From NCBI GenBank assembly GCA_016867375.1, contig VGJQ01000002.1, positions 368 through 64,367 of the forward strand: DNA of 64,000 bases. The letters run 5' to 3'. Origin of the DNA: Candidatus Kaiserbacteria bacterium (lineage in GTDB: Bacteria > Patescibacteriota > Minisyncoccia > Phycocordibacterales > UBA2100). Below, piece after piece: positions 28,916 to 46,943 of the stretch. The notes beneath the pieces are model-generated. The model saw only the letters and a program-made list of their open reading frames with translations, did not search any database and was not told where the DNA came from. Both the position numbers and the translations under genes were made by a program. How positions within the stretch are numbered: position 1 is the stretch's first letter; every line of letters starts with the position of its first letter.

Positions 28916-28927
28916 AGGCCTACCTAC

Positions 28928-29273
28928 CCACCTACACTTATCTGTGCCTATAGGCACGGATAAGTGTAGGTGGTGGATGCATTGTTGTTTGGTCGTGTAA
29001 GGGTTCGTCCACAAATTAACGAATCCGTTATGTGTGGACTACACGTATGGGCCCGCTCATTTTGTGTTGAACTTACTTATGAACGAGCCCTTAGGGCTCG
29101 TCCGTAAATAAATCGACCCTCTCTGAGCTCATTGCATCGCCGACTACAACCACTCCTCAATCGCAAAAAGCTCATCGTACCTCGGGTACGCCTCGCTTTT
29201 TGCTCAATCGTCGCGGCCGTATTCGACGCGCACTGAGTCATATAGGGTCAATTTATTTACGGAAGAGCCCTAA
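28928..29273. mobile_element. MITE-like composite. 48-bp perfect palindrome CCACCTACACTTATCTGTGCCTATAGGCACGGATAAGTGTAGGTGG (28928-28975), module A (28999-29092), then a ~115-bp core bounded by ~26-bp terminal inverted repeats GGGCTCGTCCGTAAATAAATCGACCC / GGGTCAATTTATTTACGGAAGAGCCC (29093-29118, 29245-29270)
   Basis: Inverted repeats read directly; non-coding; left boundary of a repeat-bounded island. Confidence 0.65.
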
Positions 29274-29345
29274 CTGTCGGGATGCGCCGTTTGAACGCGC
29301 GGCTTGAACGGTGCGAAGAATCTTTGCGTGGTGTATCATTTCCCC

Positions 29346-30653: not shown

Positions 30654-32045
30654 TTGCGAGATGTTCGCGGGAAGATCATTCGCGAACAATACGACCCTCA
30701 CATGATCGTGCAGAATCCTTTTGTAAAACACCTCGCCATTGATCTGGTGCGCTATGAACATAGTGATTTTGCTAAAGGAAGTGCGAGGCAGTTTGAGAGT
30801 CAGGTGCTTGAATATATCGGTTTGAAGGACCATATTAAAGGTGGCTTTAAGCCGTTGAACGAAACATACACACCAAGCGATGTGCTCAATATCGCAAAAG
30901 TCGACAAAACGCGCGAAGCGGAGTTCAAGCACACGAAGGATTTTTTCAGCCGGTGGGGGCGCGTTCTCGCGGCGCTTGAGCAGGCGCAATACCTGCTGCA
31001 CAACAAAGGCTCGCGCGGCCTCGGAGAGTTGCGCGAAAGCATCGAGCGGCATGTCGGTGCATACATCGGACGCTTGCGCACCGAGATGCATCAGCCGCCA
31101 AAACGAGTGAACGCCAGAGACAAACCGCTTCCACCGCTTACGTCGCAGCAAATGGAGCAGCGGGTACGGCATATGGAGCAAACGATCGAGCGCCTGCAAA
31201 GCGTCCTTGATCACCGGCCATCGTTGCAAGAGCAATTCAATATATTGCGGTCGATTAAAGGGGAGTTTGATGATGAATTGATGCAACTGATGTTCTTCTT
31301 GGGTTTTCGGTACAACCGTGGCTATGTCAGCGAGCCTCTTCCCTCCTATTCTCTCGAGAATCCGACTCTCGATGAAATCACGTGGGTGATGAACTTCGTC
31401 GATCACATCGTGGGCCAAGAGACACTCTCGAAATACTTTACCGACAAAAAGGCGGCAAAGTCATTTCGCGATCTTATCGATCTTTCGGCGCTCGAGCAGG
31501 GTGTCGCGCGGATGCAAAATGCGCTCGGTACCGCGGGCGCCATGCATATGCAATTCTTGCCCAATCGCGGCTTGCTCGCCGAATTCTCCGGACAAATTGC
31601 CGACGCCTGTTGGGCGACGACGCATGGCATCGGCCTGCTGGAGAAATTCCCCCACATCACGACGCTCCTCATGGTCCAAAATCCCGAGACGGTGCACGAG
31701 CGGCTCGCGGGGGCCGCGCTCCTGATAGAGACTGTCAGCGCGAATGATGAGCCGCTCCTAGTGATCCGTGGTTTGAATCCAATCCAAAATGTCATCAACC
31801 AGCTCGATGTAAAAGACTTTTATCAGCACACAATCACATACCTCAAGACGATAGCGCAGAAGCAGGGTAGGAAGCTCGCCATCGTTATCGACGACCATTC
31901 CGGCGGAGCAGCGACTAATCGACCCGTTCTTTTCACGTATCTCGATCAACTCAAATCATCTCTGCAAAAGGTACGCCTCAAATCAGCACAGGACACGACC
32001 TTCAATGACTACAGTATCGTGAATGATTGTTACCTTGTGGCTTGA
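30654..32045 (+). CDS. Hypothetical protein (463 aa; 448 aa if it starts at ATG 30699)
   Basis: Long intact ORF co-oriented with 29346..30653; no recognisable catalytic motif. Confidence 0.55.
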   Translation: MRDVRGKIIREQYDPHMIVQNPFVKHLAIDLVRYEHSDFAKGSARQFESQVLEYIGLKDHIKGGFKPLNETYTPSDVLNIAKVDKTREAEFKHTKDFFSRWGRVLAALEQAQYLLHNKGSRGLGELRESIERHVGAYIGRLRTEMHQPPKRVNARDKPLPPLTSQQMEQRVRHMEQTIERLQSVLDHRPSLQEQFNILRSIKGEFDDELMQLMFFLGFRYNRGYVSEPLPSYSLENPTLDEITWVMNFVDHIVGQETLSKYFTDKKAAKSFRDLIDLSALEQGVARMQNALGTAGAMHMQFLPNRGLLAEFSGQIADACWATTHGIGLLEKFPHITTLLMVQNPETVHERLAGAALLIETVSANDEPLLVIRGLNPIQNVINQLDVKDFYQHTITYLKTIAQKQGRKLAIVIDDHSGGAATNRPVLFTYLDQLKSSLQKVRLKSAQDTTFNDYSIVNDCYLVA

Positions 32046-32055
32046 AGAAGTTTTT

Positions 32056-32336
32056 AGGTCCCGTTCATAAGGCTCACTTCTGCATACATGACTTTTGGTC
32101 ATGTATGCAAGTGTGCACTTATAATTTCAACACAAAATGAACGGGCCCATAAGTGTAGTCCACAAATAACGAGTACGTTAATTTGTGGACGAGTCCTTAA
32201 AGTACTTGTTTATGATTCGCGGCCGCGAATCATAAACAAGTACTTTTATCCGGACAATATATTTTGGGATGTTCTAAGGCTTAACCTTAGAACAGATATG
32301 CTATCTTTGCGCTATAGCGTGGAGATAGCATACAGA
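32056..32336. repeat. Composite repeat: module C + module B (32056-32200), 46-bp perfect palindrome AAGTACTTGTTTATGATTCGCGG|CCGCGAATCATAAACAAGTACTT (32199-32246), palindrome GTTCTAAGG-CTTAA-CCTTAGAAC (32270-32292), module D (32297-32336)
   Basis: Read directly; right boundary of the two-gene island. Confidence 0.8.
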
Positions 32337-32414
32337 TATTGAAGCGGGACTTCGTTTGCTTTGAGCATATCCCAAATCGATGAATACTACTCATGACCTC
32401 CGATGTATCAATAG

Positions 32415-33116
32415 ATGTCCTATAGATCTCTTATTCATACGTGGTTTTGCGAACATGCTAAGGACCCGTCCATAAGGGCGGCCTTTTCCTCGATGGTGTT
32501 GCGGGTGCGCGCGGAGTGCAATGGGCACCATTGCACTACCGTGTATGATTGCATCGTTTCGGGGGAATATTACAATGTGCAGACGATGGCCTACTATTAT
32601 TCGCCGTTTCGGAAGGTATATGCAAAACCGTCTGAAGGGTGCCCTTTTTGTACAAGCGCCACGTTTGCAGAGCAGATCATCACTTCAGGGCACGGTATGG
32701 CAGTCGAGAATGAGCATTATCGATGGATCATTAATGCATATCCAAAATTTGAAGGCCATACCATGGTGGTGCCTAAGCGTCATGTGACTACTCTTGGCGA
32801 TGAGAGTGCTGAAGAAATTGTCGCTCGGGAAGAGCTCATTGTGTTGGCGTCAAACACACTTCGGAAGCTGTATCCAGGGTCGGGAATTGAAGTATTTATA
32901 CAAACAGGAGAGGGTTCAGAAAGTAGCGTAGCCCATTTGCACTGGCATGTAGTGCCTTCACTTCCCGAGGATCATCTGCGCGGCTTTGACAAACTCGGTC
33001 ATTTCTTTACGATTGAGCAAGACAAGGAAAAGGTAATCGTCTTTCCGGTGCCGATTCGATTGGCACAAAGCGATCTCCTCAACGCCTTGAGAGATGTTCT
33101 TAGGTCCCGTTCATAA
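32415..33116 (+). CDS. HIT-superfamily (GalT/Ap4A-phosphorylase-like) nucleotidyl hydrolase or transferase
   Basis: Histidine-triad-like HLHWHVVP and a CPFC zinc-knuckle-like motif. The 3' end and stop codon lie inside a module B repeat. Confidence 0.55.
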   Translation: MSYRSLIHTWFCEHAKDPSIRAAFSSMVLRVRAECNGHHCTTVYDCIVSGEYYNVQTMAYYYSPFRKVYAKPSEGCPFCTSATFAEQIITSGHGMAVENEHYRWIINAYPKFEGHTMVVPKRHVTTLGDESAEEIVAREELIVLASNTLRKLYPGSGIEVFIQTGEGSESSVAHLHWHVVPSLPEDHLRGFDKLGHFFTIEQDKEKVIVFPVPIRLAQSDLLNALRDVLRSRS

Positions 33117-33194
33117 ATAATTTCAACACCAAATGAACGGGTCCATAAGTGTAGTCCACAAATAACGAGTACGTTATTTGTGGACGAGCCCTTA
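33099..33194. repeat. Module B copy overlapping the last ~6 codons and stop of the HIT-family gene
   Basis: GGTCCCGTTCAT..GTTATTTGTGGACGAGCCCTTA. Confidence 0.75.
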
Positions 33195-33219
33195 CACAAA
33201 CCACATAAGGAACGTACAG

Positions 33220-33500
33220 ATGAAAGCAATCATAATGGCTGGTGGTCGTGGAACGCGACTGGGTCTTTTAACGCATGACAACGTGAATAAACACATGTTG
33301 CCGGTCTACGATCGTCCCATGATCGAATATGTCATACAGACCTTGGTAAAAGGTGGACTCACTGACATTCGCGTCTCTCTGAATTAGAGCAATCCTCAGA
33401 TTTTGATGGCACAGCTCGAAGATGGTGCGCGTCTCGGATGCGACATCCACTACATGTATCATCGCGGCGCGTTTGCGGGGCCTGCCAGACACTTTCTCCA
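33220..33500 (+). pseudogene. Glucose-1-phosphate thymidylyl/uridylyltransferase (RfbA/nucleotidyl-transferase) remnant: 56 intact N-terminal codons, stop, then a frameshifted ~30 codons of residual similarity, then unrelated sequence
   Basis: MKAIIMAGGRGTRLGLLTHDNVNKHMLPVYDRPMIEYVIQTLVKGGLTDIRV aligns with the RfbA N-terminus (MKGIILAGGSGTRLYPLT..KQLLPVYDKPMIYY). A stop at 33385 and loss of homology afterwards. Confidence 0.55.
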
Positions 33501-33794
33501 TTGTGATAGGATAGTAGTGCTTTGTCAATACATCAAGAGCAATGTGTTGTTTTTGATGTGTGAGCACAAACATACAAGTCTGACTTGTTCAAAACAAAGT
33601 TATACACAAGCGTGTATCGATGCGGCTTTTTATGCGATAAAATTGACATGGTTTTTATTTTTTATTAAACGGCAATCGTTTACCTGTCGAGGCGCGAGAC
33701 GTCTCTCGAAGTATGGCCCATATACGGAAAAGCAACCGCTTTTCCCGGCAAAACCATGCTCTCGAGAACAAGTCATGCATAATTACTGAACATC

Positions 33795-36700
33795 ATGCGA
33801 AACATAATACGTTTCTTTGGCGCGTTGGGTATTTTATCAGTGTTTCTTTTTACGGGGCTCCACATCGCCTCCGCCGCGATCACGTCGAATACGGCCGCTG
33901 ATCTCACCATCACGGGGCAGACGATCAAAGCCTCGTCGACGCCGCTTGCGGTCATCGGGTTGAACGTCGCTGTAAATGCGGGTGAAAAACTCGCCTCGAC
34001 CTCGATCATGATCGCCGGCTCGAACGGCTTCGCGGTCGCGACCGACCTCGCCCCCCTCGGCACGGCGACATCGTCGGGTATCGCGCTCTACCGCGACACC
34101 AACGGCAACGGCCGCTTCGATGCGGCGGCGGATACCGTCGTCCCGCTTGCAAGCGCACCTGTCTTCACAGGCGCCACGACCACACTTTCGCTCACCGGGG
34201 CGGGCGAAACGCCCATCTCGAACGCGGGCGGCAACAACTACTTCCTCGTCGTGCAAACCGCTGGCGCAGCGGTGAATGGGCACGCGTTCACCGTGAGCAT
34301 CTATCCTGGCAACATTCAGTACAGCTCGGCCACTCCCGCTGGCTCGCCGACGGCCCTCACCACGAATACCATTACCGTCGACACGACGGCGCCCGCGCTC
34401 AATGCGGGCATGACGGGCCCCATGAACGGCTCGACCGGTGTACCCATCTCGACCTTTATCCACATGGGCTTCAATGAAAACCTCGACCAGACGACCCTTA
34501 ATTCATCCAACATCACTCTCACCGCGGGCGGCTCGCCCGTGGGCATCGCGGTACGACCCTTCCCCGACGGCTTCGATGTGGTCGTCTCCAACCCGCCCTC
34601 CTATGCGGCAAGTTCGCGCTTCGCCAAAGCCTCGACCGTCTCCACGGGCTTCTTCGGCGTCAACGGCACCAACACCATCTTCCCGCAGGGCACTTATACC
34701 GCGCCTGTGGTGGGCGATATCGTCTTCACCCAGTTCGACACCTTCGCGCCCGATATCGGCATCGTGACCAACAACACGCTTACCTCGGGCACCTTCGGCG
34801 TGAACGGTTTTGCGCTCTTCCGCCCTGCACAGATCACCAAATTCGCCGTGCCGAATTCGATCGGCGCTGTAACCGCGGCGACGGGTGTGGGCATAGGCGA
34901 TCTCATAGTCGTCAATACGAGCGCTAACCCGACCGACGTCAAGTACAACTGGCACGTCGTTACGACGGCGGACGCCGTCAATGGCGCGAGCTTGCGCCTC
35001 GACGGTTCGGGCGCCGCGCCCACGTACCAGAGCGGCTCATCGTTTAGCCGCCTTTTGCCCGCCGCGACTTCGACAGTCAATGGCTCGGGCGTCTTGAATG
35101 CCTCGACGACGTTTGCCGTGGGTGATCTTGTCTTCGCCCATCTTTCTGCAGGCGGGGATAATCTCAACCGGTACGCGTGGCATCTCGTGACCGCCGTTAC
35201 GGGCGCGGGCATTCTCGGCCCGCAGGGCGGTGGCGGCACCATTTCGCTCGACGGCGGTACGCCCACCTTTGCCAATAACTCGGTCGTCGCCAAGTTGACG
35301 ACCGCGGGCAACGGCGCCGTCGATACAGGCACTCCAGACGCTACAAGCTTCTCCTTCGGCGACATCATGTTCTCCAAAGTGACGGCAAACGCGGGCAACA
35401 CCGGTTCGTACGCCTTCCACATGATCTCAAACGGCGCCACCGGCGCGACCTCGACCGCGTTGCGCCTCGACAACAGCGCGTCCAATCTCCTACCCTCGAC
35501 CGCGTACGTCGCGACCGCAAGCACGGGAGTCAAGGATGCGGCGGGCAACGCTCTTGCATCACCCGTCACGCTCTCCTTCACCACCGGCTCGACCGGCGGC
35601 ACCAACACGACGCCCCCCGCAGTCATGAACACCCAGCCGCAGCAGGGCAACCAGCAATTCGCCCCCAATGGCAAAATTGCGTTGACCTTCAGCGTGACGA
35701 TGCTCGCCGACGGCGGCGCCAATGCCGTCAATAACGCGGCGGTCGTCGTGCTCTCGACGTCGGTCAATGGCGCACCGGGTTCCGCGGTGACGGCTACGCG
35801 CAGCTATGACGCGACAACCAACACGCTCACCGTCACGCCGAGCGCCAATCTTGCCACGAATACCGAGTATGTCGTTCAGGTGACGACCGCCGCGCGCACG
35901 ACGACCGGCGTTTCGATGCCCGGCGAGTATCGCCTGTACTTCCGCACGGCTTCGGCGGTCGACAACACGGCCCCGACCGTCCCCGGCGTCAACCCCGCCG
36001 CAGGTTCGACCGGCATTTCGCTCTCGCAAGTCTTTACCGCCGGATTCTCCAAAGACATGGATCCGGCGACCGTCTCGACGAGCACCGTCAAGCTCCTTAC
36101 GCAAGTCGGCGGTACGGCCGTCGCAGGCAACGTCTCGTACAACCCCATGAGCCGCTCGGCCAATTTCGTGCCGTCGGTCGTGCTCAACACCTCGACCGGG
36201 TACCGCTTCCAGATCGGCGCGGGCCTCACCGGGCCGGCGGATCTTGCCGGCAATCGTCTCGCCGCGACGTCAACTTCGTTTGCGACGACGACGGCATCGG
36301 CCGATGCGGTATCACCGATCGTCTCCTTCGCGAGCGCCGACAACTTCGGCATCGCCGTCACTTTCTCCGAGACGATGAAAACCGGCAGCGGCCCCAATGC
36401 GGCCGACAACATTGCCAACTACACGCTCGAAAGTCCGACGGGCACTTCGATCTCGCTCGGCGGAAAGACGGTCGTCTATGACGCCGGCACCAGGACGGCG
36501 CGTATCTCGGGCCTTTCGCTCCAAAACGGCAACACCTTCAAGGTGACGATCGCCACGCCCGTGCAAGATCTTGCGGGCAACGGCATCTCGACCGCCGGAA
36601 CACCCGCAGGCAATCTCTCTTTCGGCACCGTACAAAGCTCCTCAATGACGGGCGGCCAGCTTGGCCCCGGCACCGGCACGATGGATCAATCGCAGCAGGG

Positions 36701-39700
36701 TATGAATCCGATTCGCGTGAGTCCGATGAGCCGTAGCGCGGGGGTTATATCGCAGTACAACGTAACGTTTCCCGCCGCGACCTCGATTCCGCTTGGCGGT
36801 CAGATTGTGCTCACCTTCCCCTCCGGTTTCGACGTGACAAATGCCGCGATGGTCGCCACCTCCTCGAACGCCTCATTCTGCAACACCGACGTCAACGGCC
36901 CCATGAGCGGTTCGCCGTACATCTTGAGCGTGTCGAACGACGCCAATGCCGGCACCATCACGCTCAATACCGCCGGCGCCGCATCCGGCGCAAACGCGTT
37001 CGTTTGCCTCGACATCGCGGGCATCGTGAATTCGACCGTGCCGTCCACTGCCGGGTACGTCGTTGACCTCAAAACGCGCGACACCGCCGGCAATAACCGC
37101 GCGATTCTCGAAACAAAGAGCGCGGCGCCGTTCTTCCTCGGCGTTGCGGGCACACGCACGCTCACCGTCAATGTCTTCAACGACGGCAACGCAAACAGCA
37201 CGATCAACGCCAATGAAGGCATCGGTAACGTAAAGGTATTTCTGTTCTCGCCAGCGTCCGGAGGACAAATGGCGACGACATCCGCATCGGGTGTTGCGAC
37301 GTTTACCTCGCTCGCCGACGGCGATTACATGCTCGGCCTCGATCCAGGCTCACTCGCGACTGCCTCCTCGACCGTCACCTACAATTCCGCGCCTCAAAAC
37401 TTCACCGTCTCGGCCACCACGCTTGTCAAAAACATCATCGTCTCGGGCGCGGGCAGCACCGTAACGATCTCCGGCACGATCACCGGCCCGTCGGGCACGT
37501 CGATCGACATCTTCGCTTCAAGCCCCAACGGTTTCTCCAAGAAAACGATGACTCTGACCGCCGGCCCCGATGCGTACTCGATCCCCGTTCAGACCAACAG
37601 CACGTACAACATCGGCGTCGGTCCGGCAATGCCCGACACCGCCTTCATCCCGGGCGCTCCGCCACCGCCACCGCCGACGTTCACCTTCATGCCGCCGCCG
37701 TCCTTGATGGTCACGGTCGCTACCACCTCGGTTTCGGGCAAGAACTTCACCCTCTCGAGCGCCTCGAAGACGATCACCGGATCGGTCTTGGATTCCGCGG
37801 GCAACGCCGTATCGAACGCCGGCGTCTTCGCGCGCCCCGTCTCCAATTCGACCGGCGCGGGCGGCGCATCGGGATCGGATCTCGGCTTCGGCACCGGCGG
37901 CATGACCAACACCTCGGGCGCGTTCACGCTCAATGTGGTGCCGGGCACGTACCTCGTCGGCGTGTTCAAGCCGGGTATGCCCAACGTGCCGGATCAGCAA
38001 ATCACCGTGCCGTCGAGCGGCGCCAACACGCCTTCCTCGCTTACCTTCAAGCTCGGCGTCGGCTCGTCGCTCACCATATCGGGTACCGTCAAGGATGACA
38101 GCGGCAATGCGGTACCATATTCCGGCGTTTCCGGCCGCAAAATCACCTCGACATCCGATACGACGCCGATCGGCGGCGGGCAGGGCAACTTCGTCGGCGG
38201 GCCGGCCGACGCCAACGGCGCTTACACGCTCTACGTCACCAACGGTGTCTGGCAAATCGAGGCCTATGCACCGGGCTTCGGGAAGCTCGGCTCCAAGACC
38301 ATTACCGTAGCAGGCTCCTCGCTCTCCGGCCAAGACTTCTCGGCCCAAACGCTTTCGATTGGCACGATTACCGGCTCGACGACCGTGGCATCGGCCGGCG
38401 TGCAGGGTGTGATCGTCCGCGCCGAGGGCGCCAACGGCGCCAACATGGCCGTCTCGGATGCGACCGGCTCGTATAGCCTCAAGGTCCCGGCCGGCACCTA
38501 CACGCTCACGTGCGTCTTCCCGGGACAGGGCGATTCGACCCCGACGACCGGTGTTGCCGTCACGGCCAACAACACTACGAGCGGCCAAGATTGTGCGCTT
38601 GCCGCGCCGATCACCGTCACCGTCAGGCTCACCGACGGCACCAATCCGATCACCAACGCCTTCGTCGACGCGCGCACCTCGACCGGCCGTGGCAATGGCA
38701 CCGGCGACAACGCCACGAGCAGTATCTACGGCGTCTACACGCTCACGCTCGCGCCGGGCACGTACACTATCCGCGCGGGCAGTCCCGCATTCGGCCCCAT
38801 CGGCTCGACCGCCGGGGTCTCCTCGACGCAAACCATCACCTACACAACGCCTAAACTCTACAGCGTAACGGGCACCGTCTCGGCCTCGGGTGTGGGTGCG
38901 ATTAACACATGGGTATCGCTCACGGGAACGCCCACAGGCCAGACCAACATCATTACGACCGGTTCGCAAACGGGCGCGGGCGGCGCCTTCGCGATCTCCG
39001 TGCCGGCGGGGAGTTACCAGATCCGCGCGGACAAACCGGGTTTCATCTCATCGACGCCTTCGACTGTCACCGTCACCGGCGATACCGCGGCGGGGACGCT
39101 CGCGCTCACGACCGCATCCCTCACGATCTCGGGCCAGGTCACGTTGTCGGGTAGCGGCGTCTCGGGCGCATTCGTCGACGCGACGAACGGCTCGGGTGGC
39201 TTTGCAGTAGCGCAAACTGACGCTTCCGGTAACTATTCGCTCGCCGTTTCTTCGGGTACATGGACGGTAACCGCGCGCTCGATAGGGTATTCAGGTGCGA
39301 CAACCGCCTCGGTGGTCGGCGGATCCGCCTCGGGGCAAAACATTGCGCTTTCGGCGATCAGCGGCTTCACGGTCAGGCCCGAGCGCCAGGAAAACGTCAC
39401 GCCGACCATGGGCGGCCTCCTCACTAATTCCGACATCGGCAACGCCTTCAAACTCAACATTCCGGCGAACGCCTTGGGCACCGGTTCAAACGCGGGTACG
39501 GTCAAGACGCAGAACAATACCGCGCTTCCCAATATCGTCAACGGCACCGTGCTCGCTAAAAGCGGCGTTTCGATCAGTGCGGTCGATGCGTCCGGCCAGC
39601 CGGTGAAAAACCTCAACGATAGCGTTACGATTACCGTACCTTACAACGAAAGCGATATTCCGAGCGGCCGATCAGAGAGTGATTTGCAACTCGGCGTGTG

Positions 39701-40751
39701 GAATGATGCGACGGCTGCGTACGACATCCTCCCGACCACGGTCGATGCGGTGAACAATACTTTGACCGCGACCGTGTCCCACTTCTCGGATTTCGCGCCG
39801 ATAGTCCCTGCACAATCGACGACTCCCGGCGTGACGCCCGCAAGCACCCCCGTTGGCAATGGTGCGCCGGTGGGCGGCGGAGGCGGAGGCGGAGGCGGTT
39901 CCACAGGCCCCGCGCCGCGTGCGCAGATCATCTATCCGGATGGTCGTATCGTGTACCTCGATCAGATGAACGGTTCGGAAGCGAAGGTGACCGCTGCTGC
40001 GGCGCCTGCCCAATTCACGAACGCTCCGAAGTCTCTCTCCGACATTCATATCGGCACCACTGTTTCCGGTCGCTTCGTTGCTGCGCTCAAACAAGGTTCA
40101 CGCGGCAAGGACGTTTCGCGCCTGCAAAAGCTCCTTGGCGTCGAAGAAACGGGTTACTTCGGTCTCAAGACCGTAAAAGCCGTGCAAGAATTTCAGCTCA
40201 CTTACGGTGTCGTAAAGAAAAACGGCTCTGGTTACGGGTTGCTCGGCCCCAAGACACGCGCCAAACTCGAAGAAGTATTTTCTTCGAGAGCGATATCGGC
40301 GCAAGCGAGTGCACAAGGACAAACGTCGAGCGGCAACGCTTCGGCTGTTGCAGCCGTCCCGTTCACGCGCACACTCACGGTGGGGATGACAGGCGACGAC
40401 GTGAAGCTTCTCCAGATCATCCTCAACGGCGATCCCGATACGCGGCTTGCCGCATCGGGCGACGGCAGCCCCGGTATGGAGACAAACAAGATTGGCCGCC
40501 TCACCATAAGAGCCATTGAGAAGTTCCAGATCAAACATGGGCTTGTCAAGAAAGGTGCGAGCGGTTTCGGCAATCTCGGCCCCAAGACACGCGCCAAGTT
40601 GAACGAAATCCTCACGGCGCCGGTCGTGGTGACGGAAACAGTCGTCGCGACTTCCTCGCCATCCGTCCCTTCGGTCGCTACGACGACGGCAGCGTCGGCT
40701 GGCGCAACGGTGACGGCAACGACGACCGTCGCCACCAGCACCGCGCAATAG
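33795..40751 (+). CDS. Giant cell-surface protein (2318 aa): signal peptide, many Ig-like and carboxypeptidase-regulatory-like beta-sandwich repeats, Gly9 and Pro6 linkers, two C-terminal peptidoglycan-binding (PGBD-type) repeats
   Basis: Single uninterrupted ORF. N-terminus MRNIIRFFGALGILSVFLFTGLHIASA. Recurrent ..TGSV.D..G..V..A.V......G.Y.L.V..G.Y.. modules. Two copies of LKQGSRGKDVSRLQKLLG..GYFG..T..AV..FQ...GL...G..G.LGPKTRAKL at the C-terminus. Confidence 0.8.
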   Translation: MRNIIRFFGALGILSVFLFTGLHIASAAITSNTAADLTITGQTIKASSTPLAVIGLNVAVNAGEKLASTSIMIAGSNGFAVATDLAPLGTATSSGIALYRDTNGNGRFDAAADTVVPLASAPVFTGATTTLSLTGAGETPISNAGGNNYFLVVQTAGAAVNGHAFTVSIYPGNIQYSSATPAGSPTALTTNTITVDTTAPALNAGMTGPMNGSTGVPISTFIHMGFNENLDQTTLNSSNITLTAGGSPVGIAVRPFPDGFDVVVSNPPSYAASSRFAKASTVSTGFFGVNGTNTIFPQGTYTAPVVGDIVFTQFDTFAPDIGIVTNNTLTSGTFGVNGFALFRPAQITKFAVPNSIGAVTAATGVGIGDLIVVNTSANPTDVKYNWHVVTTADAVNGASLRLDGSGAAPTYQSGSSFSRLLPAATSTVNGSGVLNASTTFAVGDLVFAHLSAGGDNLNRYAWHLVTAVTGAGILGPQGGGGTISLDGGTPTFANNSVVAKLTTAGNGAVDTGTPDATSFSFGDIMFSKVTANAGNTGSYAFHMISNGATGATSTALRLDNSASNLLPSTAYVATASTGVKDAAGNALASPVTLSFTTGSTGGTNTTPPAVMNTQPQQGNQQFAPNGKIALTFSVTMLADGGANAVNNAAVVVLSTSVNGAPGSAVTATRSYDATTNTLTVTPSANLATNTEYVVQVTTAARTTTGVSMPGEYRLYFRTASAVDNTAPTVPGVNPAAGSTGISLSQVFTAGFSKDMDPATVSTSTVKLLTQVGGTAVAGNVSYNPMSRSANFVPSVVLNTSTGYRFQIGAGLTGPADLAGNRLAATSTSFATTTASADAVSPIVSFASADNFGIAVTFSETMKTGSGPNAADNIANYTLESPTGTSISLGGKTVVYDAGTRTARISGLSLQNGNTFKVTIATPVQDLAGNGISTAGTPAGNLSFGTVQSSSMTGGQLGPGTGTMDQSQQGMNPIRVSPMSRSAGVISQYNVTFPAATSIPLGGQIVLTFPSGFDVTNAAMVATSSNASFCNTDVNGPMSGSPYILSVSNDANAGTITLNTAGAASGANAFVCLDIAGIVNSTVPSTAGYVVDLKTRDTAGNNRAILETKSAAPFFLGVAGTRTLTVNVFNDGNANSTINANEGIGNVKVFLFSPASGGQMATTSASGVATFTSLADGDYMLGLDPGSLATASSTVTYNSAPQNFTVSATTLVKNIIVSGAGSTVTISGTITGPSGTSIDIFASSPNGFSKKTMTLTAGPDAYSIPVQTNSTYNIGVGPAMPDTAFIPGAPPPPPPTFTFMPPPSLMVTVATTSVSGKNFTLSSASKTITGSVLDSAGNAVSNAGVFARPVSNSTGAGGASGSDLGFGTGGMTNTSGAFTLNVVPGTYLVGVFKPGMPNVPDQQITVPSSGANTPSSLTFKLGVGSSLTISGTVKDDSGNAVPYSGVSGRKITSTSDTTPIGGGQGNFVGGPADANGAYTLYVTNGVWQIEAYAPGFGKLGSKTITVAGSSLSGQDFSAQTLSIGTITGSTTVASAGVQGVIVRAEGANGANMAVSDATGSYSLKVPAGTYTLTCVFPGQGDSTPTTGVAVTANNTTSGQDCALAAPITVTVRLTDGTNPITNAFVDARTSTGRGNGTGDNATSSIYGVYTLTLAPGTYTIRAGSPAFGPIGSTAGVSSTQTITYTTPKLYSVTGTVSASGVGAINTWVSLTGTPTGQTNIITTGSQTGAGGAFAISVPAGSYQIRADKPGFISSTPSTVTVTGDTAAGTLALTTASLTISGQVTLSGSGVSGAFVDATNGSGGFAVAQTDASGNYSLAVSSGTWTVTARSIGYSGATTASVVGGSASGQNIALSAISGFTVRPERQENVTPTMGGLLTNSDIGNAFKLNIPANALGTGSNAGTVKTQNNTALPNIVNGTVLAKSGVSISAVDASGQPVKNLNDSVTITVPYNESDIPSGRSESDLQLGVWNDATAAYDILPTTVDAVNNTLTATVSHFSDFAPIVPAQSTTPGVTPASTPVGNGAPVGGGGGGGGGSTGPAPRAQIIYPDGRIVYLDQMNGSEAKVTAAAAPAQFTNAPKSLSDIHIGTTVSGRFVAALKQGSRGKDVSRLQKLLGVEETGYFGLKTVKAVQEFQLTYGVVKKNGSGYGLLGPKTRAKLEEVFSSRAISAQASAQGQTSSGNASAVAAVPFTRTLTVGMTGDDVKLLQIILNGDPDTRLAASGDGSPGMETNKIGRLTIRAIEKFQIKHGLVKKGASGFGNLGPKTRAKLNEILTAPVVVTETVVATSSPSVPSVATTTAASAGATVTATTTVATSTAQ

Positions 40752-40902
40752 AGGGGTGTTGCCGCAAAAACAACCGAGTAAAGCACCTACGCAAGCCTGG
40801 CTCGCATGTATACCTACTCTCGGTCGAGCGACTCTCGGTCGTGGTGCGTTAAGCTTCCAACAGATGGTCGGTGCCCGTCTTGCCCATGGAAGCAGACACC
40901 GA

Positions 40903-40938
40903 ATAGGCGGCCGCTGACTAAAAAAGTCAGCGGCCGCC
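40903..40938 (+). terminator. Strong hairpin GGCGGCCGCTGAC-TAAAAAAG-TCAGCGGCCGCC downstream of the giant gene
   Basis: 13-bp perfect stem; no clean T-tract, so terminator function is uncertain. Confidence 0.45.
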
Positions 40939-40948
40939 ACTCTCTTGT

Positions 40949-40978
40949 TGACTTTCACGGGCGTTTCGCATATATTTA
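40949..40978 (+). promoter_or_regulatory. Candidate sigma70-type promoter for the rpsZ-secY ribosomal cluster (-35 TTGACT, 17-nt spacer, -10 TATATT), followed by a ~180-nt leader
   Basis: Hexamer match and spacing read directly. Confidence 0.4.
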
Positions 40979-41158
40979 CTCCTGCCTCGTAGGGGCTTCG
41001 TTTTTGGCTGATCTTGGGTCTCTCTTGGCCCAGATATCGCAAGAATCAAGCCACACAGGGGAATCCCATAACCAGGTACCGAAAGGTCTGGTGCAGGGTC
41101 TCCGAAACTCCTCTAGGCAACCCCTCGACATGGCTCGGGGTACAATTCTTCGCATTTT

Positions 41159-41344
41159 ATGGCTAAAACATCAATGAAAGTGAAGGCACTTCGCACCCCG
41201 AAATTCAAGTCGCGGGTCGTTCGTCGCTGCTTCAAGTGTGGCCGCCCGCGTGGTTTTATGCGTGATTTCAATCTCTGCCGCATTTGCTTCCGCGAAGAAT
41301 CTCTCGAGGGCAATATCCCTGGCATTAAGAAATCGAGCTGGTAG
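41159..41344 (+). CDS. rpsN: 30S ribosomal protein S14 type Z (zinc-ribbon form, 61 aa)
   Basis: [23 protein letters not shown] (CxxC..CxxC). Confidence 0.9.
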
Positions 41345-41371
41345 TCCAAAATATCTCACTATAAAAATCCT

Positions 41372-41767
41372 ATGGTTACAGATCCTGTCGCAGACTTCAT
41401 AAATCGTCTCACCAACGCTGGCGCGGTGGGCCACAAGACCGTTTCGCTCCCGTTTTCACTCTTTAAGGCTGCAATCGCCGAGAAGCTCAAAGAAGCTGGC
41501 TATGTCGCCGCGATCGAGAAAAAGGGCAAGAAAGTCCGCAAGACTCTCGATATTACCCTCAAATACGACGAGGCAGGCAAGCCGGTGATCCATGGCGTCA
41601 AGCGCATTTCCAAGCCAGGCCGTCGCCTGTATCGAAGCGTCAATGAAATCATTCCCGTCCGCTACGGACACGGCGCACTCGTGCTCTCTACTCCCAAAGG
41701 CATCATGACGGACAAAGAGGCCCGTAAGGCTAATGTCGGCGGCGAGGCCCTGTTTGAAATCTGGTAA
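41372..41767 (+). CDS. rpsH: 30S ribosomal protein S8
   Basis: MVTDPVADFINRLTNA N-terminus and ..GGEALFEIW C-terminus. Confidence 0.9.
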   Translation: MVTDPVADFINRLTNAGAVGHKTVSLPFSLFKAAIAEKLKEAGYVAAIEKKGKKVRKTLDITLKYDEAGKPVIHGVKRISKPGRRLYRSVNEIIPVRYGHGALVLSTPKGIMTDKEARKANVGGEALFEIW

Positions 41768-41969
41768 GGTTTGTCCCACGAAATGAGCGCATTCCGTGCG
41801 TTCATTTCGTGGCTGACAAACCTTACCCAGCACCTTTTCAAGTACGAATCAATGGTAACTTGGCAGGGTCTCGGGAAAAAGGTATGTTTAGTCACCACAG
41901 TACCAATAGCGTGAAAGGTGCTGGGTGTAAGAGCTTCTAAGCTCGTTACACTCGCTAATAATCTCTAAC

Positions 41970-42506
41970 ATGAGTCGACTTGGCAAAAAATCAATCCATA
42001 TTCCGTCGGGGACTGAGGTCGCCGTCTCGGGGCACGAAATCACCGTCAAGGGCAAAAACGGTACCCTCAAGAAGTCGATCCATCCGGCGGTCTCTATCAT
42101 GGTCGCAGATGGCGCTGTCTCGGTCTCTCCGGCGACCTCGAGCCGCCTTTCCAAGGCCCTCTGGGGTACGTATGCGGCCCACGTAGGCAATATGCTCAAA
42201 GGTGCCTCTACCGCCTTTTCAAAGAAGCTCGAAGTGCAGGGCATCGGTTACAAGGTCGAGCTCTCCGGTAAGACGCTCAACCTCTCGGTCGGATTTTCGC
42301 ATCCGGTCAAGGTCGAGATACCTGAAGGCATCTCGGTGACAGTCGAGAAGAATACGATCACGATTTCAGGAGCTGATAAGGATGCGGTCGGACAGTTTGC
42401 CGCCAATGTCCGCGCTATTAAGAAGCCAGAACCATACAAGGGCAAGGGCATCCGGTATGAAGGCGAGGTCGTACGCATGAAGGAAGGTAAGAAAGCGGGA
42501 GCATAA
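41970..42506 (+). CDS. rplF: 50S ribosomal protein L6
   Basis: [17 protein letters not shown]..; spc-operon order. Confidence 0.9.
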
Positions 42507-42517
42507 TCCACATTTTT

Positions 42518-42862
42518 ATGGCACTTACAAAAACACAACAGAGACAGCGTCGTCACAATCGCGTCCGCGCGAAGGTCGTCGGCACCGCAGATCGCCCGCG
42601 CTTGTCGGTCTTCAAGTCCAATACACGCCTCGTCGCGCAGATCATCGACGATACCAAGATGGTGACGATCGCCGCTATCTCTTCAGACAAGGAGAAGGGC
42701 AAGACCCCGCGCGAGCGCGCGGAAGCATCGGCAGTGACGCTCGCAAAGGCAGCACGGGGGAAGGGTATCAAGGCAGTGGTGTTTGATCGCGGCGGATTCC
42801 AGTACAAGGGTACTATCCAGGTATTTGCCGATGCGGTCCGCGCTGCGGGATTAGATTTCTAA
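42518..42862 (+). CDS. rplR: 50S ribosomal protein L18
   Basis: [18 protein letters not shown]..; operon position. Confidence 0.85.
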
Positions 42863-42874
42863 TATATTCATAGT

Positions 42875-43447
42875 ATGGCAACCGAACACACAACGGAAAA
42901 GGAGGAAGCAAAGGTCGTCGAGAATGGTCGCGCTGATCATCGCGGTCCGCGCGGTCGCGGTGGAGATCGAGGGGGTCGTGGCGGCAGGGGTCCGCGCGAT
43001 GATCGCGCTCCCCGCAGCGAGTATTCGCAAAAGCTCATCGGCATCCGTCGTGTCGCACGCGTCATGGCAGGCGGTCGCCGCTTCAATTTCAGCGTATGCA
43101 TAGTGATCGGCGACAAGAAAGGCTCAGTCGGTGTCGGCTTGGGTAAAGCGGCAGACACAGCGCTTGCGATCGAGAAGGCTACCCGCGATGCCAAGACCAA
43201 TATGATCAAGATCTCCCTCACCAAAAATCGCTCAATCAAGCACGACGTATCATCCAAATATTGCGCATCGGTCGTCGGTATCCGCCCCAGCCCTGGCCGT
43301 GGTCTCGTCGCGGGCTCGTCCGTCCGTACCGTGCTCGAGCTCGCCGGCGTATCCGATGTCACCGCCAAGCTCCTCTCTCGCAGCAAGAATCCGATTAACA
43401 ACGCGCGTGCAGCTGTCGATGCGCTGCGCCAGGTAATAGAAAAATAA
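42875..43447 (+). CDS. rpsE: 30S ribosomal protein S5 with RGG-rich N-terminal extension
   Basis: IRRVARVMAGGRRFNFSVCIVIGDKKGSVGVGLGKA core, N-terminal GRGGDRGGRGGRGP. Confidence 0.9.
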   Translation: MATEHTTEKEEAKVVENGRADHRGPRGRGGDRGGRGGRGPRDDRAPRSEYSQKLIGIRRVARVMAGGRRFNFSVCIVIGDKKGSVGVGLGKAADTALAIEKATRDAKTNMIKISLTKNRSIKHDVSSKYCASVVGIRPSPGRGLVAGSSVRTVLELAGVSDVTAKLLSRSKNPINNARAAVDALRQVIEK

Positions 43448-43473
43448 CGAGCACAGCAAGTATATTTTTCATT

Positions 43474-43578
43474 ATCCAGCACCACTTTTGACTTTCAGTT
43501 GAAAATATGAAAAACTATCTTCTCATGTTACAGACAGGTATCACCATATCGCACTCGCACTCAAAAGTGGTGCTGGAT
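43474..43578. repeat. Perfect 18-bp inverted repeat ATCCAGCACCACTTTTGA / TCAAAAGTGGTGCTGGAT separated by 69 nt, in the rpsE-rplO spacer where rpmD (L30) normally resides
   Basis: Read directly; no L30 ORF is present. Confidence 0.75.
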
Positions 43579-43617
43579 GGTGATTTTTATTGTCGCTTCG
43601 CTCTGTAAAAATCTACC

Positions 43618-44067
43618 ATGGCAAACCTTAATTCTCTCAAACGGGTAGGCGCGACGAAGAAGATGCGTGTCGGACGCGGTGGCAAGCGCGGCAAGACTTC
43701 TGGTCGCGGTACCAAGGGTCAGAGCGCGCGTGCAGGCAACAAAAAGCGCCCGGAATTGCGCGATATCATCAAGCGTCTCCCAAAGCGCCGCGGATATGGC
43801 AAGAATCGCGCCAAGGGTGTGATCGGCTCATACATAAAGCCGCTCGCGATTCCAGTCGGTCGCCTCGAAAATCTCTTCGACACAGGTGCGGAGGTAAATC
43901 CGCAGACGCTCGCGATGCGCGGCATCGTCAAAGGCAAGGGGAGCCGCGTCCCGCAGATCAAGATCGTCGCAGGCGGCGATTTCTCCAAGAAATTGTCATT
44001 TAGCAAGGTCGGTGTCTCCGCTGCTGCCAAGACGGTGATTGAAAAGGCAGGGGGCAGTGTAGTATAA
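43618..44067 (+). CDS. rplO: 50S ribosomal protein L15
   Basis: MANLNSLKRVGATKKMRVGRGGKRGKTSGRG.. Confidence 0.9.
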   Translation: MANLNSLKRVGATKKMRVGRGGKRGKTSGRGTKGQSARAGNKKRPELRDIIKRLPKRRGYGKNRAKGVIGSYIKPLAIPVGRLENLFDTGAEVNPQTLAMRGIVKGKGSRVPQIKIVAGGDFSKKLSFSKVGVSAAAKTVIEKAGGSVV

Positions 44068-44070
44068 ATA

Positions 44071-44101
44071 TGCAGTTTACAGTTTACAGTTTACAGTTTA
44101 C
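44071..44101. repeat. (CAGTTTA)4.4 tandem heptanucleotide repeat followed by three degenerate CCACTGTC repeats, between rplO and secY
   Basis: cagtttacagtttacagtttacagtttacag read directly. Confidence 0.85.
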
Positions 44102-44162
44102 AGAAACTCGCGGTCGAGCCGGTTTCCACTGTCCTCTGTCCACTGTCTACTGTTAACTTCTT

Positions 44163-45437
44163 ATGTTCGAGACTTTCATTCGCAAACTCAAGCTTGTCTT
44201 TGAAGACAAGACGATCCGGACGCGTATCCTCTTCGTGCTCGGGGCGCTTATTGTATTTCGCTTGCTCGCCGCGATCCCTGTGCCGGGTATCAATGCCGCC
44301 GAACTCCAGGCATTTCTCACCAACAATCAATTCCTCGGACTTCTCAACGTCTTCTCGGGAGGCGGTTTTTCCAATCTTTCGATCGTCATGCTCGGCGTCG
44401 GTCCATATATCACTGCGTCTATCGTGATGCAGCTTTTGACCGTGCTCGTACCCAAGCTCAAGGAGATGTATCAGGAAGAGGGGGATGCTGGCCGAGCTCG
44501 TTTTATGCAGTATTCTCGCTACCTCACGCTTCCGCTCGCGCTCATCCAGGGTTTTGGTTTCATCTTGCTTCTTCAGCAGAATGGCATTTTGCCGGAACTC
44601 ACGATCCTCGGCTTTGTCACCAATATGATGGTCACTGCTGCCGGCTCGATCCTTCTTATGTGGATCGGAGAGCTCATCTCAGAATACGGCGTCGGCAATG
44701 GTGTATCGCTCATCATCTTTGCCGGCATCGTCGCTGCGATCCCGACGAGCGCCGCGCAGTTCTTCTACTCGTTTGACCCTGCACAGCTTCCCGCATACGT
44801 CGGATTCTTCGCGGTCGGTATCGCCATCATGGCGGGTGTCGTCTTCATCACCGAGGCCGAGCGCCCGATCCCTGTCACGTATGCGCGCCGCGTGCGCGGT
44901 ATGAAGGTCATGGGCGGCGTATCCACGTATCTCCCGCTTCGCGTGAATCAGGCGGGAGTCATGCCCATCATCTTTGCGCTCTCTATCCTGCTTTTCCCTC
45001 AGATGATCGCGACCTTCCTCTCCAAGAGCTCGATCCTCTGGCTTGCCGAAGCTGCGCGCGCCGTCGTCGTCGCACTCAACAATCAGTGGCTCTATGGCGC
45101 GCTCTATTTCGTCCTCGTATTTATCTTCACGTATTTCTACACAGCGATCACCTTTGAGCCGCATCAGCTTGCGAAGAATCTGCAGAAGAACGGCGCTTTC
45201 ATCCCCGGCGTGCGCCCAGGCCAGAATACTTCAGAATATCTCGCCAACATCATCACGCGCATCACGCTCGTCGGCGCCCTCTTCCTCGGGTTTCTCGCCG
45301 TCTTGCCGATCATCCTTCAGGGCATTACGGGTATCACTGCGATCACAATCGGCGGCACCGCACTCCTCATCGTCGTCTCCGTAGTCCTCGACCTCGTCAA
45401 AAAGGTCGACGCGCAGACCTCGATTCGGGAGTATTGA
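44163..45437 (+). CDS. secY: Preprotein translocase subunit SecY
   Basis: Ten TM helices, conserved LNVFSGGGFSNLSIVMLGVGPYITASI plug and TM2 region. Confidence 0.9.
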   Translation: MFETFIRKLKLVFEDKTIRTRILFVLGALIVFRLLAAIPVPGINAAELQAFLTNNQFLGLLNVFSGGGFSNLSIVMLGVGPYITASIVMQLLTVLVPKLKEMYQEEGDAGRARFMQYSRYLTLPLALIQGFGFILLLQQNGILPELTILGFVTNMMVTAAGSILLMWIGELISEYGVGNGVSLIIFAGIVAAIPTSAAQFFYSFDPAQLPAYVGFFAVGIAIMAGVVFITEAERPIPVTYARRVRGMKVMGGVSTYLPLRVNQAGVMPIIFALSILLFPQMIATFLSKSSILWLAEAARAVVVALNNQWLYGALYFVLVFIFTYFYTAITFEPHQLAKNLQKNGAFIPGVRPGQNTSEYLANIITRITLVGALFLGFLAVLPIILQGITGITAITIGGTALLIVVSVVLDLVKKVDAQTSIREY

Positions 45438-45506
45438 CAAGAATACATAGTATGTGATATACTTTATTTTAGAGTACAAACTGCAGTACTCGGATTGGAG
45501 GGTGCG

Positions 45507-45905: not shown

Positions 45906-45934
45906 TGTTGTCCCGCGCCACCGTGTATACGGCC

Positions 45935-45969
45935 GGCGCGGGATTCTTTTTATTTTTTTTGGTATAGTG
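45935..45969 (+). promoter_or_regulatory. First copy of a 33-bp direct repeat GCGGGATTCTTTTTATTTTTTTGGTATAGT containing an extended -10 (TGgTATAGT); second copy at 47630-47664
   Basis: Direct repeats bracket the hicBA/phd-relE island; -10-like hexamer TATAGT at 45964-45969. Confidence 0.5.
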
Positions 45970-46041
45970 TCGCAGGTCGGGCTTATGACACTAGCGAGGA
46001 ATTCATTTTGTATATGGGTAGATTCGGGGTATACTACAAAT

Positions 46042-46544: not shown

Positions 46545-46670
46545 GATAGAGAGTGGTCGATATAATCACGATTGGCGGCACGGCGCTTCCCATCGCATCT
46601 GCGTAGTCCTCGACCTCGTCAAAAAGATCGACGCGCAGACGAGTATAAGGGTTCATTTTGAATACAGTAA

Positions 46671-46913: not shown

Positions 46914-46943
46914 CAGTGTCGACAAAATGCTCGGTCGCATCCC

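Follow-up and report, generated by a model that had tools for sequence, protein, structure and literature searches.

A giant, putatively wall-bound surface protein encoded next to rpsZ in Candidatus Kaiserbacteria, and a candidate leader RNA of the distal spc operon

The locus and its source genome

The window analysed here, 64 kb of one contig (VGJQ01000002.1; 64,701 nt in the NCBI record) from a Candidatus Kaiserbacteria bacterium, encodes a giant protein of 2318 residues upstream of rpsZ and the distal part of the spc ribosomal protein operon. On balance we favour the view that this is a genuine, separately transcribed gene, that its product is a fibre or scaffold bound non-covalently to the cell wall, and that its adjacency to rpsZ is incidental.

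A protein 100% identical to the giant protein is present in NCBI as hypothetical protein FJY93_00660 of Candidatus Kaiserbacteria bacterium, which the NCBI taxonomy places in the Patescibacteria group, Parcubacteria group, Candidatus Kaiseribacteriota. When SecY was used to find relatives (57-82% identity), all 62 were metagenome-assembled genomes (MAGs) of Patescibacteria, and the ribosomal genes were mapped on each of the 62 loci around these genes in species-representative genomes. A preliminary description, made from the DNA letters alone, had placed the organism in the Candidate Phyla Radiation (CPR); both comparisons agree, and by sequence the source genome is Candidatus Kaiserbacteria (Patescibacteria/CPR).

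Domain organization of the giant protein

The domain map (Table 1) was built from Pfam searches with the whole protein and with ten overlapping fragments, from internal repeat detection, and from two AlphaFold models, one for each half of the protein, constructed on 42 homologues (predicted local distance difference test score, pLDDT, 78 and 76). The mature protein has a mass of 227.6 kDa and an isoelectric point (pI) of 5.7, and is rich in Thr, Gly, Ala, Ser, Val and Asn with just 4 Cys. Its N-terminus resembles a signal peptide, with an n-h-c pattern and a hydrophobic segment at residues 3-21, and AlphaFold modelled this region as a helix and then a break of low confidence. Inspection of the sequence revealed no lipobox Cys; the C-terminal region lacks an LPXTG-like motif as well as a hydrophobic or transmembrane segment.

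In the whole protein Pfam identified Big_5 in 5 stretches (130 bits) and CarboxypepD_reg in 6 stretches (96 bits), together with a weak match to SdrD_B. The folded domain next to the signal peptide matched no Pfam family and no PDB sequence. Beyond it the models consist of successive beta-sandwiches, roughly 20 in the predicted ectodomain, and those of the stalk half are only 30-40% identical to one another, consistent with old, divergent repeats. Most of what the preliminary description had read from the translation is thus confirmed, namely the length and position of the ORF (open reading frame), the signal peptide, and the Pro6 and Gly9 runs, which lie at residues 1289-1294 and 2027-2035, respectively; the domain annotation and structure prediction that it proposed as checks returned Big_5, CarboxypepD_reg and PG_binding_1, with the repeats modelled as all-beta. 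It had also counted dozens of Ig/CarboxypepD_reg-like repeats; the domain types hold, the number was too high. The disordered segment that contains Gly9 is presumed to be a wall-spanning spacer.

Table 1. Features of the giant gene, its product, the spacer before rpsZ and the neighbouring genes. Nucleotide positions refer to the window.
Feature	Nucleotides	Residues	Strand	Evidence or remarks
Giant gene	33795..40751	1-2318	+	ATG start; uninterrupted ORF; 2318-residue precursor
Signal peptide	33795..33875	1-27	+	MRNIIRFFGALGILSVFLFTGLHIASA followed by A; predicted cleavage after ASA; starts MRNIIR
N-terminal (distal) beta domain	33876..34379	28-195	+	DxNxNGxxD loop; most variable folded part
Ig-like half of ectodomain	34380..37154	196-1120	+	Pfam fragments, repeats; AlphaFold all-beta, pLDDT 78
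Weak Big_5-like domain		196-300
Three ~80-residue repeats		361-545		xYxWH motif
Three strong Big_5 domains		605-945
Cys-containing beta domain		946-1120
Stalk half of ectodomain	37155..39809	1121-2005	+	Pfam; AlphaFold pLDDT about 80-90
SdrD_B-like domain		1127-1186
About six CarboxypepD_reg/transthyretin-like domains		1326-1870
Last beta domain of ectodomain		1871-2005
Disordered Gly/Pro/Thr/Ala linker	39810..40076	2006-2094	+	Holds Gly9; pLDDT 26-41
Two PG_binding_1 three-helix modules	40077..40622	2095-2163, 2198-2276	+	Pfam and AlphaFold
Disordered Thr/Ala/Val/Ser tail	40623..40748	2277-2318	+	pLDDT ~30; not conserved
Terminator-like hairpin	40906..40938		+	14 bp (11 G-C); predicted end of giant-gene transcript
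Promoter of rpsZ-secY unit (predicted)	40948..40976		+	TTGACT-17-TATATT; conserved in relatives
Structured 5' leader of rpsZ	40978..41158		+	Covariance model, folds
Leader, closing stem	40983-40993 / 41110-41119			Predicted
Leader, long helix	40994-41006 / 41040-41052			Capped by variable hairpin 41011-41035
Leader, arm	41058-41067 / 41096-41103			Encloses GNRA hairpin 41071-41092
Leader, optional hairpin	41123-41140			CCCCUCGA...UCGGGG; between leader core and rpsZ start codon
rpsZ	41159-41344	1-61	+	Pfam; CxxC...CxxC
rpsH	41372-41767		+	Pfam
rplF	41970-42506		+	Pfam
rplR	42518-42862		+	Pfam
rpsE	42875-43447		+	Pfam
rplO	43618-44067		+	Pfam
secY	44163-45437		+	Pfam; distal spc unit spans 41159..45437
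Methyltransferase (S-adenosylmethionine-dependent)	28199..28915		+	Pfam Methyltransf_25/11
Upstream part of ~12-kb insertion	28916..33794		+	Between methyltransferase and giant gene
Two acidic cytoplasmic proteins	29304-30653, 30654-32045			No Pfam matches
HIT-domain protein	32415-33116			Pfam
Truncated NTP_transferase (sugar-nucleotidyltransferase) pseudogene	33178-33384			Fragments to ~33500; Pfam positions 1-50/245, then stop
L,D-transpeptidase (YkuD) + D-Ala-D-Ala carboxypeptidase (Peptidase_S11)	11979-13532			One fused ORF

A predicted C-terminal peptidoglycan-binding region

The PG_binding_1 family (PF01471) scored 29.4 bits with the whole protein and 39.6 bits with the C-terminal fragment, both above the cut-off of 23. 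The two copies of the peptidoglycan-binding domain (PGBD) are 40-54% identical to each other, and AlphaFold folded both as three-helix bundles with pLDDT 87-95 (model residues 985-1042 and 1081-1154). Searching PDB sequences with the C-terminal 257 residues gave weak matches, of which the three best relevant ones were the PGBD proteins 1lbu, 5tv7 and 5nm7. Its pI of ~10 also makes this region basic, in contrast to the ectodomain, all segments of which are acidic or neutral (pI 4-6).

Among the homologues the ectodomain is collinear while the C-terminal module is exchanged, with fn3 and two PG_binding_1 domains in one (P0033), fn3 and two SH3_3 domains in another (P0038), and fn3 and three S-layer homology (SLH) domains in a third (P0071). 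Given that PGBD, SH3b and SLH modules are all non-covalent wall binders, the exchange supports a chain whose C-terminus sits at the wall and whose N-terminus points away from the cell. Elsewhere in the window are genes for MurA-like, MurC, MurD, FtsEX and the L,D-transpeptidase/D-Ala-D-Ala carboxypeptidase fusion, and the organism therefore makes peptidoglycan to which such an anchor could bind. We infer that the two modules form a non-covalent peptidoglycan anchor. The two C-terminal PGBD-type repeats of the preliminary description are thus recovered by Pfam and AlphaFold alike, and its term "peptidoglycan-anchored" holds in the sense of predicted non-covalent binding, not of anchoring by sortase, for which there is no motif.

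Conservation of the family

More than 60 full-length homologues of 2150-2690 residues were found at 48-72% identity, in Kaiserbacteria, Doudnabacteria and other MAGs of the Parcubacteria group, and further ones at about 30% identity in Uhr-, Gracili-, Peregrini- and Wildermuthbacteria; one remote homologue is named S-layer homology protein. An exhaustive profile-free search with the N-terminal 577 residues returned 31 representatives below 1e-30 among 1.84 billion. The distal beta module also recurs inside other giant proteins of 2000-4000 residues, and weaker matches that share Big_5 domains include RHS/YD-repeat proteins, covering 5-16% of the query (P0100-P0120).

Conservation across the 42 homologues is very uneven along the chain. 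Residues 196-2005 are 55-70% identical with 0-3% gaps, and over this range the variation in domain number between relatives that is usual in fibrillar adhesins is absent. Mean identity is 41% for the N-terminal domain, 35-41% for the PGBDs, 23% for the linker and 10% for the tail, where 60% of positions are gaps. The sequences thus point to a small Parcubacteria family with a fixed ectodomain, a variable N-terminal domain, and interchangeable wall anchors of PGBD, SH3b or SLH type.

When the models were compared with the PDB by Foldseek, the N-terminal half matched generic Ig chains (contactin, the BIg domains of LdtMt2, the PrgB adhesin) with low template modelling (TM) scores, and the S-layer proteins EA1, SbsC and Sap were among the matches, with TM-scores of 0.11-0.19. 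The C-terminal half matched the B. anthracis TIE protein, the pilins PitA, BcpA and SpaA, and an adhesin extender. A PDB sequence search with the N-terminal 1150 residues found no homologue at E<=0.01.

The giant gene and rpsZ-secY as predicted separate transcription units

The preliminary description had the giant gene directly upstream of rpsZ, which is imprecise. The two genes lie on the same strand, separated by a spacer of 407 nt (40752-41158) that contains a terminator-like hairpin, a promoter and a structured leader. The homologues L002 and L003 likewise end in strong hairpins. The TTGACT and -10 boxes of the promoter were invariant or near-invariant in 20/20 close relatives. By these signals, the giant gene and rpsZ-secY are predicted to form separate transcription units.

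Two additional ORFs near the ends of the giant gene, at 33403-33789 and 40806-41177, were considered as degenerate copies of the L14, L24 or L5 genes and rejected, having no Pfam match and a non-coding composition. The first coincides in part with the decayed NTP_transferase gene, and the second with the terminator, promoter and leader.

A structured leader upstream of rpsZ

A leader of roughly 160 nt, with a range of about 140-190 nt, lies immediately upstream of rpsZ in all 20 close relatives. It gave no Rfam match at the gathering score or at E<=10. We describe it by a covariance model of its own (R1), with 18 hand-placed base pairs and 17 seed sequences, which detected the leader in the window and in all 20 close relatives, four of them outside the seed, at 57-126 bits, and found nothing at E<=1 in the remaining ~40 loci.

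In the alignment of these leaders 92.8% of the cells are paired, compared with 79.3 +/- 1.1% in shuffles, and 15 of the 18 pairs show compensatory changes, with both sides altered. The covariation score was 0.494 versus 0.242 in shuffles and was reached by none of 500 shuffles, while controls in which the partner strand was slid gave pairing of 57.6% at most. Because the structure in the model guided the alignment, the pairing and covariation counts lean towards that structure. RNAalifold re-predicted the long-range helix, the second arm and the GNRA hairpin, and the same three-way junction appeared in about 18 of 21 independent minimum-energy folds.

The predicted closing stem pairs an invariant 5' GCCUC...GGGG with CUCC...GGC 10-25 nt before the rpsZ start codon; its covariation is weak, consisting of one compensatory pair (G-C to A-U in two sequences). 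A small terminator-like hairpin with a U-run at 40979-40995 was considered as an attenuator. That reading was dropped, given that in the covariation and folding results a purine run further downstream is the partner of the U-run and of the hairpin's 3' half. The optional hairpin of Table 1 is found in 3 of 21 leaders, those of the window, L005 and L054.

Known autoregulatory systems of this kind include the control of the E. coli spc operon by S8 and the L10, L20, S15 and S4 leaders in Rfam. The rpsZ leader resembles them in being a conserved, structured 5' untranslated region directly upstream of a ribosomal protein operon. It differs in belonging to no Rfam family, in standing before rpsZ rather than rplE, and in its restriction to one Kaiserbacteria-like clade. 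By this analogy it is a candidate ribosomal-protein leader, which would bind a protein and mediate regulation. For RNA biologists the clade-specific promoter and the covariation-supported leader may be the more useful result, as a testable candidate for ribosomal protein feedback control, of which none is described in the phylum as far as Rfam shows.

Gene order of the spc unit and insertions at the L5/S14 junction

The order from rpsZ to secY was the same in the 60 relatives examined, also without L30. There is no rpmD (L30) between rpsE and rplO in the window, where a 170-nt spacer holds only a 33-residue non-L30 ORF, and none of the relatives has rpmD in its S5-L15 spacer, these being mostly under about 100 nt and too short for an L30 gene. 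Frequent loss of L30 in CPR has already been published (bioRxiv 10.1101/2022.01.07.475337), and the arrangement here, S5 followed by L15 as in 60/60 relatives, shows no difference from it. The preliminary description had read the rpmD-less cluster as a CPR pattern, and at the S5-L15 junction this is correct; it is the ordinary CPR condition, already known and nothing new.

The canonical layout, with rplN-rplX-rplE directly upstream of rpsZ in one transcription unit, is not that of the window, and no genes for L14, L24, L5 (rplN, rplX, rplE), S17, L16, S10 or L2 were found anywhere in its 64 kb. Remoter Parcubacteria in which rplE and rpsZ lie together (L035, L036, L038, L044, L046, L051, L065) have the order L16-S17-L14-L24-L5-S14-S8-L6-L18-S5-L15-SecY, with L5 and S14 10-100 nt apart. 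In the close clade (SecY 73-82% identical) the gap between L5 and S14 is 0.2-2.8 kb, and in several intermediate lineages 1-4.7 kb. The cargo of these gaps includes a 233-residue methyltransferase in six genomes (L004, L005, L006, L008, L015, L059) and, elsewhere, a 455-residue PG_binding_1 protein, an inositol monophosphatase, KAS III and various unknowns. One genome (L013) has a gap of 222 nt, with room for little beyond the promoter and leader. On this comparison of gene orders, the L5/S14 junction is an apparent insertion hot spot in Kaiserbacteria-like and some Nomura- and Zambryskibacteria-like genomes.

The methyltransferase of the window shares 59-63% identity with the gap gene in those same six close relatives and is thus its orthologue; it therefore marks the old operon junction. 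Given that rpsZ-secY has its own promoter and structured leader, the junction would tolerate insertions, which would account for the operon being broken and entered exactly at this point, after rplE, in this clade. We propose that the ancestral local order was L5, methyltransferase, promoter and leader, rpsZ, that an insertion of ~12.2 kb later separated the methyltransferase from the leader, and that the rplN-rplX-rplE side was lost or rearranged away from upstream of the methyltransferase. No counterparts of the insertion genes upstream of the giant gene were found at the loci of the relatives, and the NTP_transferase pseudogene among them indicates that genes have decayed and been rearranged locally.

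In the genomes of the two closest homologues with long contigs (65% and 72% identity), the gene is surrounded by unrelated genes and is not near ribosomal ones, which makes the arrangement beside rpsZ peculiar to this genome; a search of the relatives for synteny shared with the giant-gene region found none. In all likelihood, to judge from these gene orders, its place beside rpsZ is incidental. The preliminary description had it sitting where rplN-rplX-rplE would be. Those genes are indeed absent from the window, and the positional meaning given to the giant gene is not borne out.

The rpsZ promoter and leader, with the insertion-prone L5/S14 junction, are the modestly novel outcome of this part of the analysis; the promoter and leader would explain why an otherwise rigid S10-spc gene order breaks at one precise point in this lineage.

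Nature of the giant protein

Given its signal peptide, domain content and C-terminal modules, the giant protein is very probably a wall-associated surface protein. In the arrangement that we favour it would be exported by Sec, as the signal peptide suggests, and the two basic PG_binding_1 modules would hold it non-covalently on the cell's own peptidoglycan, with the ~85-residue disordered Gly/Pro/Thr linker threading the cell wall. The roughly 20 beta-sandwich domains would then form an elongated ectodomain, with the transthyretin/CnaB-like stalk nearest the wall followed by the Big_5 Ig-like domains, and would display the variable N-terminal domain outwards. At about 3.5-4 nm per domain, we estimate that such a fibre would measure roughly 60-80 nm. 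CPR bacteria are believed to live in attachment to other cells, and such a wall-anchored fibre or envelope scaffold might touch other surfaces, for example a host cell. That the protein has an adhesive or contact function at all is a serious but tentative possibility; host adhesion in particular is a plausible hypothesis.

Several observations weigh against this reading. The signal peptide was called by eye from the n-h-c pattern, and the single PGBD repeats are each weak, none passing the Pfam cut-off alone. No recognisable ligand-binding domain was found by Pfam or by PDB sequence search. The ectodomain has neither the copy-number variation nor the near-identical tandem repeats typical of fibrillar adhesins; it appears unusually conserved for an adhesin, and a structural or lattice role would fit at least as well. 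With regard to the locus itself, the two contigs retrieved from Logan (below) leave 29052-34160 uncovered.

The chain of stalk-type beta-sandwiches (Big_5 in five, CarboxypepD_reg in six stretches) and the C-terminal anchor are features of fibrillar adhesins, and the fixed domain number is not; we therefore do not file the giant protein as a typical member of that class. Nor does it qualify as a sortase-anchored LPXTG protein. As in S-layer proteins, a secreted multi-domain chain is joined to an anchoring module, without homology to a characterised S-layer protein.

The main competing proposal is that the protein is an S-layer subunit, or a second one, forming a two-dimensional lattice held by the PGBD modules. 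A signal peptide, an acidic chain rich in Thr, Ser, Ala and Gly with almost no Cys, a basic wall-binding module, and a monocistronic gene with a strong terminator would all fit such a subunit, and an indel-free ectodomain of 1800 residues at 55-70% identity suits assembly contacts better than a spacer. SLH domains in remote homologues, the name of one of them, and the presence of EA1, SbsC and Sap among the Foldseek matches point the same way. However, a different family with six Ig domains (1131-1274 residues), with a member from Kaiserbacteria, is already predicted as the S-layer protein of Patescibacteria; the TM-scores to S-layer proteins are of a level generic to Ig chains, codon bias across the homologues is not consistently of the very-high-expression type, and 228 kDa is large for a lattice subunit. 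We therefore regard an S-layer role as unlikely. The preliminary description had suggested an S-layer or adhesin type. A secreted, wall-binding, multi-domain CPR protein stands, and the S-layer type is weakened by the separate six-Ig family.

A further idea has two separate parts, namely that the family is no ordinary adhesin but a fixed-length envelope "ruler" or canopy above the six-Ig S-layer, and that the rpsZ leader is a new autoregulatory ribosomal protein RNA. Taken together these are rather improbable. If true, the ectodomain, which stays free of indels across Kaiserbacteria, Doudnabacteria and related Parcubacteria while the wall anchors change, would set a defined distance, or an outer layer, between the wall of the episymbiont and its host, and the emergence of the leader would have made the spc operon divisible and the L5/S14 junction a hot spot for insertions.

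We also considered that the join between the giant gene and rpsZ might be an assembly chimera between the end of a giant-gene contig and a ribosomal contig. The source is a metagenome-assembled genome, the composition of the insertion is a mosaic, and the giant gene has a G+C content of 0.64 compared with 0.53 for its neighbours, with a third-position value (GC3) of 0.77, also above theirs. Much of this excess, however, stems from the amino-acid composition (second-position value, GC2, 0.57). A Logan contig from run SRR7985589 runs from the giant gene across the spacer and rpsZ to secY and matches the window exactly over that stretch, and another from the same run extends from CTP synthase through the methyltransferase. 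In addition, methyltransferase and leader are neighbours in the relatives, and their presence on one contig here fits an insertion. A chimera is thus very unlikely.

The giant gene favours C-ending codons in two-fold families (AAC 0.68, TTC 0.82, TAC 0.73), whereas the neighbouring ribosomal genes favour AAT and GAT and split TAC and TAT about evenly. The C-ending bias is seen in the homologue L002 and not in L003. Horizontal transfer and very high expression were considered as readings of this codon usage; the bias is inconsistent across the homologues and we draw no conclusion from it.

A secreted enzyme or polymorphic toxin carrier, in which the beta-sandwiches present a catalytic or toxic module, would accommodate the RHS/YD-repeat proteins among the weaker Big_5-sharing matches. 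These matches span just 5-16% of the query, Pfam shows no catalytic, RHS or toxin domain in any part of the protein, and the whole chain is modelled as beta-sandwiches and anchor, leaving this proposal with hardly any likelihood. Least credible is that the giant gene is coupled to the ribosomal operon, taking the place of rplN-rplX-rplE at the head of the spc transcript: same-strand proximity of 407 nt would allow it, but the G+C-rich 14-bp hairpin ends the gene's predicted transcript, the promoter and leader are conserved also in 20 relatives without the giant gene there, the homologues lie elsewhere in their genomes, and the comparative data thus already contradict it.

Relation to known surface proteins

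The giant protein is a new, uncharacterised relative of already known surface-protein types. It shares with MSCRAMM-type adhesins (microbial surface components recognizing adhesive matrix molecules) and pilins (SdrD, Cna, BcpA, SpaA, PitA) the succession of signal peptide, distal region, stalk chain, wall-spanning segment and C-terminal anchor. Their stalks are CnaB-, transthyretin- or SdrD_B-like, and the likeness of the giant protein to them rests on Foldseek and the weak Pfam match to SdrD_B. In contrast to these proteins, it has no LPXTG/sortase signal and instead a predicted non-covalent PG_binding_1 anchor; its stalk domains are divergent (30-40%) and fixed in number across homologues, and Pfam found no recognised ligand-binding A domain.

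The S-layer proteins of Bacillales (SbsB/SbsC, Sap, EA1) are likewise secreted and acidic, with an Ig-like chain and a non-covalent wall-binding module; three SLH domains occur in remote members of the giant family, and S-layer structures were among the Foldseek matches. Unlike them, the giant protein carries its anchor at the C-terminus and of PGBD type, is two to three times larger, and shows no sequence homology and only low TM-scores to the solved ones.

Within the phylum, the six-Ig-domain family of 1131-1274 residues was predicted as the Patescibacteria S-layer protein by symmetry-constrained AlphaFold, and includes a Kaiserbacteria protein of 1173 residues, A0A0G1WWP5 (bioRxiv 10.1101/2024.05.28.596244); the prediction was corroborated by metatranscriptomics in related species (bioRxiv 10.1101/2024.05.28.596244; mBio 2024, PMC10936435). 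Both families are secreted multi-Ig-like envelope proteins of the same phylum, the six-Ig proteins being half the size and listed as a separate family. In Paceibacteria that parasitise methanogens, highly expressed secreted PGBD and Ig-like proteins have been proposed to function in host attachment (mBio 2024, PMC10936435). These too are surface proteins of the Parcubacteria group that join peptidoglycan-binding and Ig-like modules; they are different and much smaller, and the likeness is one of description.

The giant family would be modular, with a tip that varies, a shaft that is fixed and a wall anchor that can be swapped. For work on the envelope by cryo-electron tomography, proteomics and antibodies it is a concrete candidate, and an unusually well-conserved one. 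To our knowledge almost no CPR surface molecules have been characterised.

Other features of the window

Downstream of the spc unit the relatives keep the synteny of secY, gmk, adk, map, a TraG-like ATPase, a beta-CASP nuclease and a SLOG protein. The interval between secY and gmk (45495-47587) contains genes not shared with the relatives, for a DUF2059 protein and a HicB/HicA toxin-antitoxin pair (45967-46544), as well as small ORFs. Coupling-protein ATPases of the VirD4/TraG/TrwB-like type are encoded twice in the window, at 8899-11166 and 50440-53205. The latter is found at 70-73% identity in the same place downstream of map in many relatives, and is therefore a stable neighbour of the ribosomal cluster and not a mobile element. 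Next after the former comes a gene for a Lamin-tail-domain protein (11163-11924).

At its start (235-936) the window carries a fragment of an IS200-like Y1 transposase. Just upstream of the methyltransferase, ORF 27377-28018 is a putative gene only; its product, which matched no family, would contain several Cys, a (GPY)4 repeat and a single hydrophobic segment.

Two related palindromic inserts of ~100 nt with similar flanks widen the S8-L6 (41768-41969) and S5-L15 (43448-43617) spacers, which in the relatives are mostly just about 5-60 nt. Their terminal inverted repeats are ACCCAGCACC...GGTGCTGGGT and ATCCAGCACC...GGTGCTGGAT. The inserts look like elements of the miniature inverted-repeat transposable (MITE) or repetitive extragenic palindromic (REP) type, or transcript-stabilising hairpins, and a short version of the insert is present inside the rpsZ leader of one relative (L019 1716-1745).

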